The notes beneath the pieces are model-generated. The model saw only the letters and a program-made list of their open reading frames with translations. It searched no databases and was not told the DNA's origin. Source: a virus (taxonomy: Duplodnaviria > Heunggongvirae > Uroviricota > Caudoviricetes). From it: DNA of 6,354 bases. The translations under genes and the position numbers were made by a program. Positions 1,652 to 6,354 of this stretch are shown piece after piece (positions within the stretch are counted from its first letter, which is position 1; the number at the start of each line of letters is the position of its first letter). The DNA lies in the IMG/VR virus record IMGVR_UViG_2778261419_000005, one strand, 5' to 3'.

Positions 1652-1773
1652 TAGCGCCGTGAACTTTTCACGCTTATCCCTGGTGTCGATATCCGGCGTT
1701 AATTGTTAACTGGTTAACGTCACCTGGAGGCACCAGGCACTGCATCACAAAATTCATTGTTGAGGACGCGATA
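1652..1773. promoter_or_regulatory. Divergent intergenic control region with candidate operator palindrome GTTAAC-TG-GTTAAC (1705-1718) and adjacent CCTGG...CCAGG dyad (1723-1737)
   Basis: Only sizeable non-coding gap between the two oppositely transcribed gene sets; dyad symmetry read directly. No confident -35/-10 assignment. SD GAGGA at 1762-1766 serves the first plus-strand gene. Confidence 0.3.
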
Positions 1774-1962
1774 ATGAAAACGTTATTACCAAACGTTAAT
1801 ACGTCTGAAGGTTGTTTTGAAATTGGTGTCACTATCAGTAACCCAGTATTTACTGAAGATGCCATTAACAAGAGAAAACAAGAACGGGAGCTATTAAATA
1901 AAATATGCATTGTTTCAATGCTGGCTCGTTTACGTCTGATGCCAAAAGGATGTGCACAATGA
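1774..1962 (+). CDS. Small hypothetical protein (62 aa), first gene of plus-strand operon
   Basis: ATG at 1774 with SD GAGGA 7 nt upstream; TGA stop at 1960-1962 overlaps the next ATG (ATGA), indicating translational coupling. Basic protein with hydrophobic/amphipathic C-terminus (LLNKICIVSMLARLRLM). Confidence 0.55.
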   Translation: MKTLLPNVNTSEGCFEIGVTISNPVFTEDAINKRKQERELLNKICIVSMLARLRLMPKGCAQ

Positions 1963-2150
1963 ATTCAGCATTTGTGCTTGTTCTGACAGTTTTTCTTGTT
2001 TCCGGAGAGCCAGTTGATATTGCAGTCAGTGTGCACAGGACAATGCAGGAGTGTATGACTGCAGCAACCGAACAGAAAATTCCCGGTAACTGTTACCCGG
2101 TCGATAAAGTTATTCACCAGGATAATATCGAAATCCCGGCAGGTCTTTAA
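1959..2150 (+). CDS. Small exported/membrane protein (63 aa), YebW-like (DUF1482-like) by recollection
   Basis: ATG at 1959 with SD AAGGA 9 nt upstream; the ORF-track start at 1905 has no SD. Hydrophobic N-terminus AFVLVLTVFLVSG (signal peptide or TM helix), two Cys (C31, C44); size and pattern resemble E. coli YebW as I recall it. TAA stop at 2148-2150. Confidence 0.6.
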   Translation: MNSAFVLVLTVFLVSGEPVDIAVSVHRTMQECMTAATEQKIPGNCYPVDKVIHQDNIEIPAGL

Positions 2151-2243
2151 AACAGTTCCGTAATAAATATCCGGTTTCATTCTTATATGCCAGCAATGGC
2201 AGGGATTTGTTCATCCTTAAATCTGTCATGAGGTTAAAACAAA

Positions 2244-4715
2244 ATGAGTAAAGTCTTTATTTGCGCCGCTATTCCTGACGAACTGGCAACAAGGGAAGAA
2301 GGCGCTGTGGCTGTAGCCACAGCCATTGAAGCTGGCGACGAACGCCGTGCTCGAGCAAAATTTCACTGGCAGTTCCTGGAACATTATCCGGCTGCTCAGG
2401 ACTGCGCTTATAAATTTATTGTCTGCGAGGATAAACCTGGCATACCCCGCCCTGCCCTCGATTCATGGGATGCTGAATATATGCAGGAAAACCGCTGGGA
2501 TGAGGAGTCTGCTTCTTTTGTCCCGGTTGAGACTGAATCCGATCCGATGAACGTCACTTTTGACAAGCTGGCCCCTGAAGTACAGAACGCTGTCATGGTT
2601 AAGTTCGACACATGTGAAAACATCACCGTTGATATGGTTATTAGCGCACAGGAATTGTTGCAGGAAGACATGGCAACATTCGACGGACATATCGTTGAAG
2701 CGTTGATGAAAATGCCAGAAGTTAACGCCATGTATCCGGAGCTTAAGTTGCACGCCATTGGGTGGGTTAAGCATAAATGTATTCCTGGTGCTAAATGGCC
2801 CGAAATTCAGGCAGAGATGCGCATCTGGAAAAAACGTCGCGAAGGTGAACGCAAGGAAACCGGAAAATACACGTCTGTTGTTGATCTCGCCCGCGCCAGA
2901 ACCAATCAACAGTACACTGAAAATTCAACAGGAAAAATCAGCCCGGTCATTGCTGCCATTCATCGCGAATACAAGCAGACATGGAAAACACTGGATGACG
3001 AACTGGCCTACGCTCTCTGGCCTGGTGATGTGGATGCCGGAAACATTGACGGCAGCATCCATCGCTGGGCAAAAAAAGAAGTTATCGACAACGACCGCGA
3101 AGACTGGAAGCGTATCTCGGCATCAATGCGCAAACAGCCTGATGCCCTTCGCTACGACCGCCAGACTATTTTTGGCCTTGTCCGTGAGCGTCCGATCGAC
3201 ATTCACAAAGATCCCATAGCACTGAACAAATATATCTGCGAATACCTGACGACAAAGGGCGTGTTTGAGAATGAAGAAACAGACCTGGGCACTGTTGATG
3301 TTCTCCAGTCATCAGAAACACAAACTGATGCAGTGGAAACTGAGGTATCTGATATCCCAAAAAATGAAACCGCGCCGGAAGCTGAACCATCTGTAGAGCG
3401 TGAGGGGCCGTTCTATTTCCTCTTCGCAGATAAGGACGGAGAAAAATACGGTCGCGCAAACAAACTTTCTGGTCTGGATAAGGCACTGGCTGCTGGCGCC
3501 ACTGAAATCACAAAAGAAGAATATTTTGCCCGAAAAAATGGCACATACACGGGCTTACCGCAAAATGTAGATACCGCTGAAGATTCAGAACAACCAGAGC
3601 CGATAAAAGTTACCGCTGACGAAGTAAACAAAATTATGCAGGCAGCCAATATCAGCCAGCCTGACGCCGATAAGTTGCTTGCTGCATCACGTGGTGAATT
3701 TGTTGAAGGGATTAGTGACCCGAATGATCCGAAATGGGTTAAGGGGATCCAGACCCGCGATTCTGTGAACCAGAACCAGCATGAATCGGAACGGAACTAC
3801 CAAAAAGCGGAACAAAACAGCACAAATGCGTTACAAAACGAGCCAGAAACGAAACAGCCTGAACCAGTGGCGCAACTGGAAGTGGAAAAAGTCTGCACCG
3901 CCTGCGGTCAGACCGGCGGCGGCAACTGCCCTGATTGTGGCGCGGTGATGGGCGACGCAACATACCAGGAAACATTCGATGAAGAGTATCAGGTTGAAGT
4001 TCAGGAAGATGATCTGGAGGAAATGGAAGGCGCTGAACATCCACACAAGGAGAACACTGGCGGCAATCAGCATCACAATAGCGATAATGAAACTGGCGAG
4101 ACGGCAGATCACTCAATTAAGGTGAACGGTCATCACGAAATCACATCCACCAGCAGGACGTGTGACCATCTAATGATCGACCTTGAAACCATGGGAAAAA
4201 ATCCTGATGCCCCGATCATCTCAATAGGTGCAATATTTTTCGATCCGCAAACCGGAGATATGGGACCGGAATTTAGTAAGACTATCGATCTGGAAACTGC
4301 TGGCGGAGTCATTGATCGGGACACCATTAAATGGTGGCTTAAGCAATCACGCGAAGCGCAATCTGCCATTATGACCGATGAAATCCCGTTAGATGATGCA
4401 CTGTTACAATTGCGGGAATTTATCGACGAAAACTCCGGTGAATTTTTTGTTCAGGTTTGGGGAAATGGAGCCAACTTCGACAACACGATTTTGCGCCGTT
4501 CATACGAACGGCAGGGGATCCCCTGCCCGTGGCGTTACTACAACGATCGCGATGTACGCACAATCGTTGAGCTGGGGAAAGCCATAGACTTCGATGCCAG
4601 AACGGCTATTCCATTCGAAGGTGAGCGCCATAATGCACTTGATGACGCCCGTTACCAGGCAAAATACGTTTCAGTTATCTGGCAAAAACTGATCCCGAGT
4701 CAGGCTGATTCTTAA
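2244..4715 (+). CDS. Large modular protein (823 aa) with C4 zinc ribbon and C-terminal DEDDh (DnaQ-like) 3'-5' exonuclease domain
   Basis: ATG at 2244 with SD GAGG ~10 nt upstream; TAA stop at 4713-4715. Exo motifs read directly: Exo I MIDLET (D646/E648, nt 4179-4187), Exo II GNGANFD (D746, nt 4479-4481), Exo III HNALDDARYQAKY (H796/D801, nt 4629-4646). CxxC-x7-CxxC zinc ribbon at aa 551-565 (nt 3894-3938). N-terminal ~340 aa have no motif I recognise; aa ~341-630 are acidic/polar low-complexity linkers. Confidence 0.88.
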   Translation: MSKVFICAAIPDELATREEGAVAVATAIEAGDERRARAKFHWQFLEHYPAAQDCAYKFIVCEDKPGIPRPALDSWDAEYMQENRWDEESASFVPVETESDPMNVTFDKLAPEVQNAVMVKFDTCENITVDMVISAQELLQEDMATFDGHIVEALMKMPEVNAMYPELKLHAIGWVKHKCIPGAKWPEIQAEMRIWKKRREGERKETGKYTSVVDLARARTNQQYTENSTGKISPVIAAIHREYKQTWKTLDDELAYALWPGDVDAGNIDGSIHRWAKKEVIDNDREDWKRISASMRKQPDALRYDRQTIFGLVRERPIDIHKDPIALNKYICEYLTTKGVFENEETDLGTVDVLQSSETQTDAVETEVSDIPKNETAPEAEPSVEREGPFYFLFADKDGEKYGRANKLSGLDKALAAGATEITKEEYFARKNGTYTGLPQNVDTAEDSEQPEPIKVTADEVNKIMQAANISQPDADKLLAASRGEFVEGISDPNDPKWVKGIQTRDSVNQNQHESERNYQKAEQNSTNALQNEPETKQPEPVAQLEVEKVCTACGQTGGGNCPDCGAVMGDATYQETFDEEYQVEVQEDDLEEMEGAEHPHKENTGGNQHHNSDNETGETADHSIKVNGHHEITSTSRTCDHLMIDLETMGKNPDAPIISIGAIFFDPQTGDMGPEFSKTIDLETAGGVIDRDTIKWWLKQSREAQSAIMTDEIPLDDALLQLREFIDENSGEFFVQVWGNGANFDNTILRRSYERQGIPCPWRYYNDRDVRTIVELGKAIDFDARTAIPFEGERHNALDDARYQAKYVSVIWQKLIPSQADS

Positions 4716-4726
4716 TGTTCAACTGT

Positions 4727-4758
4727 CGCCGGTTGTGACTGGTATTCTGCAACCGGCG
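4727..4758 (+). other. RNA stem-loop (9-bp perfect stem CGCCGGTTG / CAACCGGCG, 14-nt loop) between the exonuclease gene and xis
   Basis: Inverted repeat read directly at 4727-4735 and 4750-4758; no downstream U-tract, so not a canonical intrinsic terminator; could be a processing or attenuation element. Confidence 0.3.
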
Positions 4759-4787
4759 CTCGTCTAATGTAAGAGATAAAGAAATCG

Positions 4788-5039
4788 ATGAGCGAAGTAA
4801 TCATGATTGTCTCTCCCGGCAAATGGGTATCCGAAGAGCAGTTAATTGCGCTGAAAGGAATAAAAAAAGGTACGTTAAAAAAGGCCCGGGAAAAATCGTT
4901 TATGGAAGGAAGGGAATATAAGCATGTCGCTCATGACGGTATGCCATGGGATAACAGCCCATGCTTTTACAACCTGGAAGAAATTGATCGCTGGATTGAG
5001 CGCCAGGCATCAGCGAGACCAAGACGTCATCTTACTTGA
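4788..5039 (+). CDS. xis: Excisionase-like protein (Xis)
   Basis: 83-aa ORF immediately upstream of and co-oriented with the integrase; purine-rich SD (AAGAGA) upstream of ATG 4788 (alternative ATG at 4803); N-terminal KWVSEEQLIALKGIKKGTLKKAR and C-terminal YNLEEIDRWI fit the small excisionase pattern of enterobacterial prophages (recollection, not searched). Confidence 0.65.
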   Translation: MSEVIMIVSPGKWVSEEQLIALKGIKKGTLKKAREKSFMEGREYKHVAHDGMPWDNSPCFYNLEEIDRWIERQASARPRRHLT

Positions 5040-5073
5040 CTAAAAGCCACACTAACTAATGAGAGAAGTTGAA

Positions 5074-6354
5074 ATGAAATATCCGACAGGCGTGGAAAAC
5101 CATGGAGGGAAATTACGTATCTGGTTTGTTTATAAAGGCGTAAGAGTCAGGGAAAATCTGGGGGTTCCTGACACAGCAAAAAACAGGCGCGTTGCAGGTG
5201 AACTACGCGCCTCTGTTTGTTACGCAATAAAAACTGGTGTTTTCGACTATGCAAAACAGTTTCCCTCCTCACGCAATCTGGAAAAATTTGGTGAGGCCCG
5301 ACAAGATTTAACCATAAAAGAACTGGCTGAAAAATTTCTGGCACTGAAAGAAACTGAAGTCGCAAAAACATCACTCAACACATACCGTGCCGTCATCAAA
5401 AATATCCTGAGCATAATCGGTGAAAAAAATCTTGCCTCATCGATTAATAAAGAAAAATTACTGGAGGTTCGTAAAGAGCTACTGACTGGATACCAGATCC
5501 CCAAAAGTAACTATATTGTTACACAACCAGGGAGATCGGCTGTAACTGTAAATAATTACATGACAAATCTTAACGCCGTGTTCCAGTTTGGTGTTGATAA
5601 CGGTTACTTGGCAGATAACCCGTTTAAGGGGATCTCGCCATTAAAGGAATCAAGAACCATTCCGGATCCTCTTTCGCGGGAGGAATTCATCCGTCTTATC
5701 GATGCGTGCAGAAATCAGCAAGCCAAAAATTTATGGTGTGTTTCTGTTTATACTGGCGTTCGCCCTGGTGAGCTGTGTGCACTTGGATGGGAGGACATAG
5801 ATCTGAAAAATGGAACAATGATGATCAGGAGAAATTTAGCAAAAGACCGTTTCACGGTACCAAAAACACAGGCGGGAACCAATCGGGTCATTCATCTTAT
5901 TAAGCCAGCAATCGACGCTCTCCGGAGTCAGATGACATTAACGAGACTGAGCAAAGAGCATATCATTGATGTTCACCTCAGAGAGTATGGCAGAACAGAA
6001 AAACAAAAATGCACCTTTGTTTTTCAACCTGAAGTGTCAGCGAGAGTAAAAAATTATGGTGACCATTTTACCGTTGACTCAATAAGGCAGATGTGGGACG
6101 CAGCGATAAAACGTGCCGGACTCCGCCATCGAAAATCATATCAGTCGAGACATACTTATGCCTGCTGGTCGCTGACAGCTGGTGCTAACCCGGCATTTAT
6201 AGCAAACCAGATGGGCCATGCAGATGCGCAAATGGTATTTCAGGTATACGGAAAATGGATGTCTGAAAACAATAATGCACAGGTAGCTTTGTTAAATACA
6301 CAGTTAAGCGAGTTTGCCCCAACCATGCCCCATAACGAAGCAATGAAAAATTAA
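5074..6354 (+). CDS. int: Phage-type tyrosine integrase / site-specific recombinase
   Basis: Start chosen at ATG 5074 (SD GAGAGAAG upstream); ORF-track start 5059 lacks an SD. N-terminus MKYPTGVENHGGKLRIWF resembles the arm-binding N-terminus of Rac-type prophage integrases as I recall them; C-terminal catalytic region has tyrosine-recombinase signatures (RHTYACW...GANPAFIANQMGH...QVYGKW). TAA stop at 6352-6354 coincides with the window end. Confidence 0.93.
   Translation: MKYPTGVENHGGKLRIWFVYKGVRVRENLGVPDTAKNRRVAGELRASVCYAIKTGVFDYAKQFPSSRNLEKFGEARQDLTIKELAEKFLALKETEVAKTSLNTYRAVIKNILSIIGEKNLASSINKEKLLEVRKELLTGYQIPKSNYIVTQPGRSAVTVNNYMTNLNAVFQFGVDNGYLADNPFKGISPLKESRTIPDPLSREEFIRLIDACRNQQAKNLWCVSVYTGVRPGELCALGWEDIDLKNGTMMIRRNLAKDRFTVPKTQAGTNRVIHLIKPAIDALRSQMTLTRLSKEHIIDVHLREYGRTEKQKCTFVFQPEVSARVKNYGDHFTVDSIRQMWDAAIKRAGLRHRKSYQSRHTYACWSLTAGANPAFIANQMGHADAQMVFQVYGKWMSENNNAQVALLNTQLSEFAPTMPHNEAMKN

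Follow-up and report, generated by a model that had tools for sequence, protein, structure and literature searches.

What do two very small, overlapping genes do in a lambdoid prophage, and have they been seen before? The question is raised by a 6,354-nt stretch of tailed-phage DNA (IMG/VR record IMGVR_UViG_2778261419_000005), hereafter called the window. Two plus-strand open reading frames lie in it, both starting with ATG: ORF1 at 1774–1962 (62 aa) and ORF2 at 1959–2150 (63 aa). A prediction made from the sequence alone described them as a translationally coupled pair of small membrane-targeted proteins at the head of a plus-strand operon, and proposed that they form a host-interaction or exclusion module. 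The gene structure it described is present. The two frames share an ATGA at 1959–1962 on the plus strand, an arrangement kept in relatives, and RefSeq annotates the same two coding sequences there with the same 4-nt overlap.

Both start sites carry recognizable ribosome-binding signals. A Shine-Dalgarno sequence read directly from the window, GAGGA at 1762–1766 (plus strand), stands 7 nt before the ORF1 start codon, and this position holds GAGGA or GAGGG in 9 of 9 Escherichia loci. The Shine-Dalgarno sequence of ORF2, AAGGA at 1946–1950 (plus strand), is embedded in the 3' end of ORF1, 8 nt before the ORF2 start. In every locus compared, either AAGGA or GGAGA is kept 7–9 nt before the corresponding start codon. 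An in-frame ATG at 1905 would lengthen ORF2 to 81 aa; we rejected this start, which extends the protein with no gain in family match and departs from the 63 aa annotated in RefSeq.

Curated protein families identify both frames. ORF1 matches Pfam PF05358 (DicB) at an E-value of 1.9e-40, with 136.8 bits against a cutoff of 27 and residues 1–62 aligned to profile positions 1–62. It also reaches 132.8 bits against NCBIfam NF049927 (cell division inhibition protein DicB; cutoff 100). ORF2 matches Pfam PF07358 (DUF1482) at 3.9e-26, with 91.1 bits against a cutoff of 25 and residues 4–61 on profile positions 1–57, and matches phrog_1092 at 6.8e-36. The suggestion that the second protein is YebW/DUF1482-like was therefore right, and source databases name its relatives "DUF1482 family", "YebW family" or "lysis protein YdfD".

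The match extends to the nucleotide level. Taking strain 7FA as the K-12-type Qin reference, we found no nucleotide difference in ORF1, which is annotated as WP_000854559.1. ORF2 differs from the K-12-type gene by a single synonymous change (GTG/GTT), and its product equals WP_001083297.1, "lysis protein YdfD". Nucleotide identity in one gene and a synonymous-only change in the other mean that both proteins are identical to those that have been studied experimentally. In a megablast search with 1500–2300, 4,402 of 5,426 complete E. coli genomes gave a match, and among the matches listed, those covering the pair are annotated as dicB followed by ydfD (the latter as "lysis protein YdfD" or "DUF1482 family protein").

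The genomic setting is that of the Qin prophage. The window represents the int-proximal arm. Downstream of the pair come genes for an 823-aa exonuclease, an excisionase and an integrase; in close relatives these adjoin rspB, just as in K-12-type Qin. We conclude with high confidence that the pair is dicB–ydfD, located distally in dicBF, the early-left (PL-like) operon of a lambdoid prophage of the Qin type next to rspB. The pair is already known and characterized, and is not a new candidate module. Its frames should be labelled dicB, for cell-division inhibition protein DicB, and ydfD, for lysis protein YdfD, rather than carried forward as a discovery lead. The proposal of a host-interaction or exclusion module captured the functional class (division inhibition, exclusion, lysis), but it left DicB unrecognized and took a characterized pair for a candidate.

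At 62 and 63 codons the frames are short enough to raise the thought that one or both are chance reading frames. This is vanishingly improbable given the full-length matches to curated families and the selection acting on both genes. Six diverged alleles, separated by dS values of up to about 2, give pairwise dN/dS of 0.10–0.53 for dicB and 0.15–0.58 for ydfD, well below 1. Searches recovered 150 and 226 homologous protein clusters, and both DicB and YdfD have published phenotypes. The minus-strand frames beneath the pair (1674–1910, 1965–2180 and 2110–2229), by contrast, match no PHROG family. Non-coding status of the first frame had been named as grounds for abandoning the original prediction; that frame is conserved at the protein level.

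The two genes also travel together. DUF1482 lies directly downstream of DicB in 20 of 20 DicB-encoding phage records, so the co-occurrence across prophages that had been put forward as a check is strict. All nine Escherichia loci keep the 4-nt overlap (ATGA or GTGA), down to 61% and 48% identity in the respective proteins. Counting these together with five loci in which DUF1482 occurs without DicB, a start/stop overlap of the form ATGA, GTGA or TGATG is present in 14 of 14, which bears out the overlapping-pair architecture. Wherever their source is named, DicB homologues belong to no genus other than Escherichia, Shigella, Citrobacter and Salmonella. Among 1.84 billion representatives DUF1482 accounts for 38 clusters when grouped at 50% identity, and its distribution is somewhat wider than that of DicB, though still small.

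What DicB does is well documented. It binds MinC, the complex reaches the septum via ZipA and depolymerizes the FtsZ ring, and cells filament (PMC6832061). By the same MinC interaction DicB inhibits the inner-membrane proteins ManYZ and blocks DNA entry of lambda-type phages that depend on them (PMC6832061). DicB lowers the efficiency of plating of lambda vir to 0.04, a resistance given as about 100-fold in the abstract of that study, and blocks growth on mannose (PMC6832061). Phage exclusion belongs to DicB alone, without YdfD, because deletion of ydfD had a minimal effect on lambda resistance (PMC6832061). The DicB encoded in the window has the sequence of the studied protein, and should carry the same MinC, ZipA and ManYZ activities.

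The physical description of the first protein as basic and amphipathic holds in part. This allele is basic (pI 9.0), with a net charge of +6 in its C-terminal half, but basicity is not a property of the family: the first 37 residues are nearly invariant among DicB proteins, and a second type of C-terminus is neutral or acidic. The C-terminal amphipathicity is only moderate, with a hydrophobic moment (muH) of 0.33. DicB has no hydrophobic segment of transmembrane strength, its best 19-residue Kyte-Doolittle mean being 0.95. Sequence searches of the PDB with DicB and with YdfD returned no match at E-values up to 1.

YdfD supplies the lysis function. Expressed alone it lyses cells, and it binds IspG by pull-down, SEC, ITC and FRET (PMC8835842). 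Its residues 1–28 contact IspG's N-terminal domain, and cysteine mutants still bind (PMC8835842). YdfD reportedly cuts the supply of isoprenoid precursors that the MEP pathway provides for the envelope, such that dividing cells lyse, and either ispG overexpression or HMBPP rescues them (PMC8835842). In the account that PMC8835842 gives with reference to Masuda 2016, co-expressed DicB or SulA prevents YdfD lysis, so lysis depends on ongoing division. Lysis and IspG binding would be expected of the YdfD encoded here, which is sequence-identical to the studied protein.

The IspG mechanism comes from the binding and rescue data of one laboratory, without enzyme kinetics, as the authors state (PMC8835842). 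One could instead suppose that YdfD lyses cells through an envelope or division-machinery target, and that its interaction with IspG is secondary. The strict need of lysis for ongoing division would suit such a target, dozens of proteins appeared in the pull-down, and no enzyme-inhibition assay was possible (PMC8835842). In addition, the hydrophobic N-terminal strand of YdfD could bind non-specifically. We nevertheless consider this unlikely, given that both the enzyme gene and the metabolite rescue the cells and that binding was seen by four methods (PMC8835842). IspG remains the preferred target.

How does the N-terminus of YdfD serve a cytoplasmic partner if, as first proposed, it resembles a signal peptide? 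There is indeed a hydrophobic run at residues 4–14, with a Kyte-Doolittle mean of 3.17 (2.0 in a 19-residue window). However, the run spans only about 11 residues, no Lys or Arg precedes it, and Gly16-Glu17 follows. It is also conserved in sequence, as FALVLTV, with Leu7 and Gly16 invariant; such conservation is unusual for signal peptides or simple anchors. The cysteine pair noted in the second protein proved to be conserved: Cys32 and Cys45, spaced as C-x12-C, are present in every member of a 23-sequence alignment whose identities go as low as 31%. In a separate 16-sequence DUF1482 alignment, Cys45 is kept in 15 sequences.

Structure prediction recasts the hydrophobic run. An AlphaFold2 model of YdfD built from the 23-sequence alignment (mean pLDDT 83, pTM 0.61) places residues 4–12 in a strand paired with residues 18–26, followed by a helix at 29–38 and a strand at 44–48, a predicted beta-beta-alpha-beta domain. 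In the region of strands 4–12 and 18–26, pLDDT is about 90. In the model, Cys32 falls within the helix and Cys45 within the last strand. The run may accordingly be an edge or core beta-strand rather than a membrane helix, in a prediction that had no membrane present. A Foldseek search of the PDB with the model gave no hit at E-values up to 0.001 (best 0.9).

These observations bear on the idea that the pair is an uncharacterized membrane-targeted module, whose second member is exported by a cleavable signal peptide and forms a periplasmic disulfide between its conserved cysteines. The hydrophobic run is followed by V-S-G, a possible signal-peptidase site, and the invariance of Cys32 and Cys45 would suit a disulfide. 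YdfD was also reportedly proposed by Masuda in 2016 to associate with the cytoplasmic membrane. Yet this reading is very unlikely. Both proteins are already characterized, the short conserved run has no basic residue ahead of it, the model pairs it confidently with 18–26, and DicB has no segment of membrane-spanning strength. Moreover, the partner bound through residues 1–28 is cytoplasmic, and the cysteines are dispensable for that binding.

Membrane targeting is thus unsupported for both proteins, and a signal peptide at the N-terminus of YdfD is doubtful. That N-terminus may instead be a strand, and a model computed with no membrane present leaves room for some membrane association. Purified, cleaved YdfD binds cytoplasmic IspG (PMC8835842), and a beta-strand N-terminus and a cytoplasmic partner held through residues 1–28 are mutually consistent. 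The predicted strand goes slightly beyond the literature, and bears on how YdfD may grip IspG.

The overlap suggests how a division inhibitor and a lysis protein would be deployed together. With the ydfD start on the dicB stop codon and the ydfD Shine-Dalgarno sequence inside dicB, a single message would yield both YdfD and its antagonist DicB. YdfD would probably be made in step with DicB, and the division block would be in place when the lysis protein appears. Given a shared message and probable in-step synthesis, lysis should not outrun the division block. A comparable model of DicB/YdfD balance was proposed by the authors of PMC8835842. Translation of ydfD is probably coupled to that of dicB, and the good Shine-Dalgarno sequence of ydfD itself would make independent initiation possible as well.

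Neither protein is without functional parallels. Lambda Kil, the analogy already drawn in the original prediction, and Rac KilR are small proteins of PL-type operons that block FtsZ-ring formation, as DicB does. No sequence relationship between them and DicB was detected, DicB matching only PF05358. They also differ in route: Kil and KilR act directly on FtsZ/ZipA, whereas DicB acts via MinC and ZipA and inhibits ManYZ in addition. YdfD finds its parallels among single-gene lysis proteins that hit one envelope-precursor target, namely phiX174 E (MraY), Qbeta A2 (MurA) and phage M Lys (MurJ); IspG has been presented as the fourth target of lysis proteins that block envelope precursors (PMC8835842). 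Like them, YdfD is small and phage-encoded, needs its host to be growing or dividing in order to lyse it, and is reported to act on a single host enzyme of envelope-precursor supply. Unlike them, it belongs to the early operon of a tailed temperate phage rather than to a small lytic phage, targets a cytoplasmic enzyme of the MEP pathway, and has an antagonist in DicB.

Comparison with other loci reveals what sets the window apart. The dicBF operon of K-12 Qin shares with the window identical DicB and YdfD, the 4-nt overlap, an 84-nt leader, the rspB site, and downstream exonuclease, xis and int genes. Upstream of dicB it differs, with dicC, dicA, dicBp, ydfA, ydfB, ydfC and dicF present in K-12 Qin and not in the window. 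Downstream the contrast is reversed: in K-12 Qin the exonuclease gene is disrupted by IS2 and the integrase truncated, while the window has an intact gene for the 823-aa exonuclease, xis and a full-length integrase.

Viable temperate phages carry the same module. Tritos, PhiR42_1, mEp460 and PPompW all keep the overlap between dicB and the DUF1482 gene, within the order cI/dicA, small ORFs, DicF (annotated in Tritos), dicB, DUF1482, exonuclease, xis, int. In Tritos the pair follows three small ORFs and DicF. The PPompW alleles are the more distant, at 61% (DicB) and 48% (DUF1482) identity, with a GTGA overlap and the second type of DicB C-terminus. Unlike the window, these phages retain both the immunity region and the promoter.

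A deletion lies upstream of dicB. By blastn and alignment, the window is homologous to K-12-type Qin from 1690 onward, which leaves dicB a retained leader of 84 nt at 1690–1773 (plus strand). Positions 1–1691 of the window match 5001–6713 of the corresponding locus in strain G6/7, and 1690–6354 match 7943–12606 of it. Strain G6/7 holds a fuller version of the same prophage. Blastn and the junction sequences place the deletion junction at 1690–1691, with a 2-nt "TA" microhomology and 1,229 bp of the G6/7 sequence missing. The missing segment comprises the 5' part of a ydaT-like gene, dicC, dicA, the dicA-dicF spacer and dicF; in the K-12-type locus that spacer is the site of the DicA-repressed promoter dicBp. 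A 120-nt query spanning the junction found it in 2 of 5,426 complete E. coli genomes.

The loss is evident in what the window retains. The features that precede dicB in the dicBF operon (dicBp, ydfABC and the DicF gene) are absent here, and the identities of the two proteins are unaffected. DicF, which in the K-12-type locus gives an Rfam match of 76.7 bits ending 174 nt upstream of the dicB ATG, has no Rfam match in the window even at E-values up to 1. We rejected a hit to STnc100 at 1654–1747 (20.2 bits against a gathering score of 47, E-value 0.39) as chance or a shared hairpin. The fold of the leader region (1690–1790, 101 nt) has a z-score of -1.74, with 8 of 200 shuffles as good, and makes no case for a structured element.

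The deletion fused the 84-nt leader to the truncated, oppositely oriented ydaT-like (CII-like) gene. Only the C-terminal part of that gene remains, at 1388–1694 on the minus strand, matching positions 84–152 of the 168-position phrog_163 profile. The gene is annotated as "toxin YdaT family protein" in relatives and as an incomplete pseudogene in MLI105. The DNA upstream of dicB is now the antisense strand of decayed rightward-operon genes, among them a DUF977/Ren-like gene and an O-like replication gene that a 22-bp deletion interrupts at 1113/1114. The pair does stand at the head of the plus-strand operon in this window, as first described, but it does so because the 1,229-bp deletion removed the genes upstream; in intact relatives it comes after ydfABC and dicF.

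The deletion raises the question of how a cell tolerates the result. In the intact operon, dicBp lies upstream of ydfA, is repressed by DicA, and is derepressed by the antirepressor Rem, urea and heat; no other promoter was detected (PMC10448788). When dicA is lost, dicBp is derepressed 22-fold, and the products of the operon are toxic (PMC10448788). In a pattern scan of 1300–2400 in the window, the plus-strand stretch 1300–1773 contained no sigma-70-like promoter. To judge from these sequence features, the pair is probably promoterless and mostly silent here, with both frames intact. Its silence would explain how the cell tolerates the loss of DicA. Because losing dicA would otherwise derepress dicBp and release toxic products, we infer that loss of the promoter along with dicA is what made the deletion survivable. 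The locus is in keeping with the notion that cells can lose DicA only if the promoter is lost too. What is unusual about this natural variant is that both toxic genes have stayed intact while dicA, the promoter region and DicF are gone.

The pair might still be expressed, from a minor promoter in the leader or by read-through, giving constitutive low DicB and ManYZ-dependent exclusion without lethal filamentation. Both frames are intact and encode no amino-acid change relative to the K-12-type proteins, and leaky expression from Plac-dicBF has been reported (PMC6832061). The chief doubt about silence comes from a promoter immediately upstream of dicB, able to transcribe dicB–ydfD, that is on record in RegulonDB (cited in PMC11430063); were it to fall inside the 84 nt that are left, expression could continue, now without DicA. 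Set against this are the experimental search that found no promoter besides dicBp (PMC10448788), the lack of a plus-strand sigma-70-like hexamer pair at 1300–1773, and upstream DNA that is the antisense strand of decayed replication genes. The junction is rare, and intact frames may simply reflect a recent event. Low-level expression is a real but lesser possibility, and a largely silent pair remains the reading we favor.

DUF1482 genes also occur without DicB, in three Klebsiella phages, Salmonella phage SW-37 and Citrobacter phage Omnitron. Each of these five DUF1482 genes has a start codon that overlaps the stop codon of a small ORF upstream, as ATGA or TGATG. The upstream partner belongs to phrog_22279 (37–40 aa) in the Klebsiella phages and to phrog_3722 (66 aa) in the Salmonella and Citrobacter phages; these two families and DicB are unrelated to one another. 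It is conceivable, if doubtful, that DUF1482 genes are always hooked by overlap to a small partner that differs by host genus, as a general "brake plus lysis" cassette. Were each partner to restrain its DUF1482 protein, the two-gene early-left cassette would be general in enterobacterial lambdoid phages, and the phrog_22279 and phrog_3722 partners would be new division inhibitors or YdfD antagonists. The conserved overlap with variable partners, a pattern from five loci, may represent a modest step beyond the literature.

Two features follow the pair downstream. In the gap between ydfD and the exonuclease gene, a pattern scan found a plus-strand hairpin at 2188–2201, TGCCAGCAATGGCA, with GGGATTTGTT coming after it, which we regard as a candidate weak terminator-like site. 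We make no claim for a terminator here from the published 1,146-nt and 1,608-nt transcripts (PMC10448788), whose arithmetic does not fit the DicF coordinates. All 9 Escherichia loci have the hairpin, including those with diverged flanks. Beyond it, at 2244–4715 on the plus strand, lies the gene for the 823-aa exonuclease, which has a C-terminal Rv2179c-like 3'-5' exonuclease domain (Pfam PF16473, 2.3e-67; phrog_2082) and corresponds to an exonuclease gene that is truncated in the K-12-type locus, where it likewise lies downstream of ydfD; the copy here is intact.

Relative to strain G6/7, which carries a more complete version of the same prophage, the window lacks 1,229 bp at a junction located at positions 1690-1691. 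The absent segment (6714-7942 of the G6/7 locus, L003) holds the 5' part of a ydaT-like gene, dicC, dicA, the dicA-dicF spacer and dicF, and the junction itself bears a 2-nt TA microhomology. Only 2 of 5,426 complete E. coli genomes contain this junction as a contiguous sequence. Strain G6/7 has a separate deletion of 876 bp relative to the K-12-type Qin locus (L003 7637-8026 versus L002 3818-5084) that removes ydfA, ydfB and ydfC and retains dicA and dicF; trimming of the dic region has thus taken place independently in separate lineages.

A second, smaller lesion lies upstream. At 1113-1114 the window is missing 22 bp that are present in strain G6/7 (L003 6114-6135), and this deletion shifts the frame of the O-like replication gene, which is thereby broken into two minus-strand open reading frames of 117 aa (1108-1461) and 210 aa (464-1096). 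Within the gene, direct repeats of the CATTTTGA(A/C)C type recur at ~23-bp spacing across 970-1101 and look like lambdoid origin iterons; three tandem 12-bp units resembling TATTCTCTGTAG occupy 931-966.

Between ydfD and the exonuclease gene lies a hairpin, TGCCAGCAATGGCA (2188-2201), followed by GGGATTTGTT. It is kept throughout the nine Escherichia loci, including those whose flanking sequence has diverged, and a simple scan flags it as a candidate terminator-like site. Upstream of the pair, the dicB leader contains a CCTGG-AGGCA-CCAGG hairpin, around which Rfam gives a match at 1654-1747 to STnc100, a Salmonella sRNA family; at 20.2 bits (E 0.39) it falls short of the gathering score of 47. 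Because this match is centred on the leader hairpin and spans the 1690-1691 deletion junction, it is probably not meaningful.

Residues 1-37 of DicB are nearly invariant across the family, and the C-terminal 25 residues (38-62; window 1885-1959) come in two types: a basic, K-12-type sequence ending in …ARLRLMPKGCAQ, and a neutral or acidic one ending in …ALLELGIFGEQQ. A few alleles appear to mix features of both. For YdfD (1959-2147), AlphaFold2 predicts a beta-beta-alpha-beta domain (pLDDT 83) in which the hydrophobic N-terminus is placed as a beta-strand (residues 4-12), not a membrane helix, with the invariant Cys32 in the helix and the invariant Cys45 in the last strand. A fold search of the PDB with this model returned no significant match.

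The DUF1482 gene also occurs without DicB in phages of Klebsiella, Salmonella and Citrobacter, where its start lies on the stop codon of a different small open reading frame through an ATGA or TGATG overlap. These upstream partners belong to phrog_22279 (37-40 aa; Klebsiella phages) or phrog_3722 (66 aa; Salmonella and Citrobacter phages), and the paired loci span L005 2891-3192 (Klebsiella), L014 1391-1692, L015 1382-about 1690, and 1301-about 1700 in both L012 (Salmonella phage SW-37) and L013. In the database, P0085 (108 aa) and P0128 (92 aa) each combine the DicB and DUF1482 Pfam domains on a single chain, and these two proteins have probably arisen by fusion over the ATGA overlap, through a frameshift or read-through, or by assembly error.
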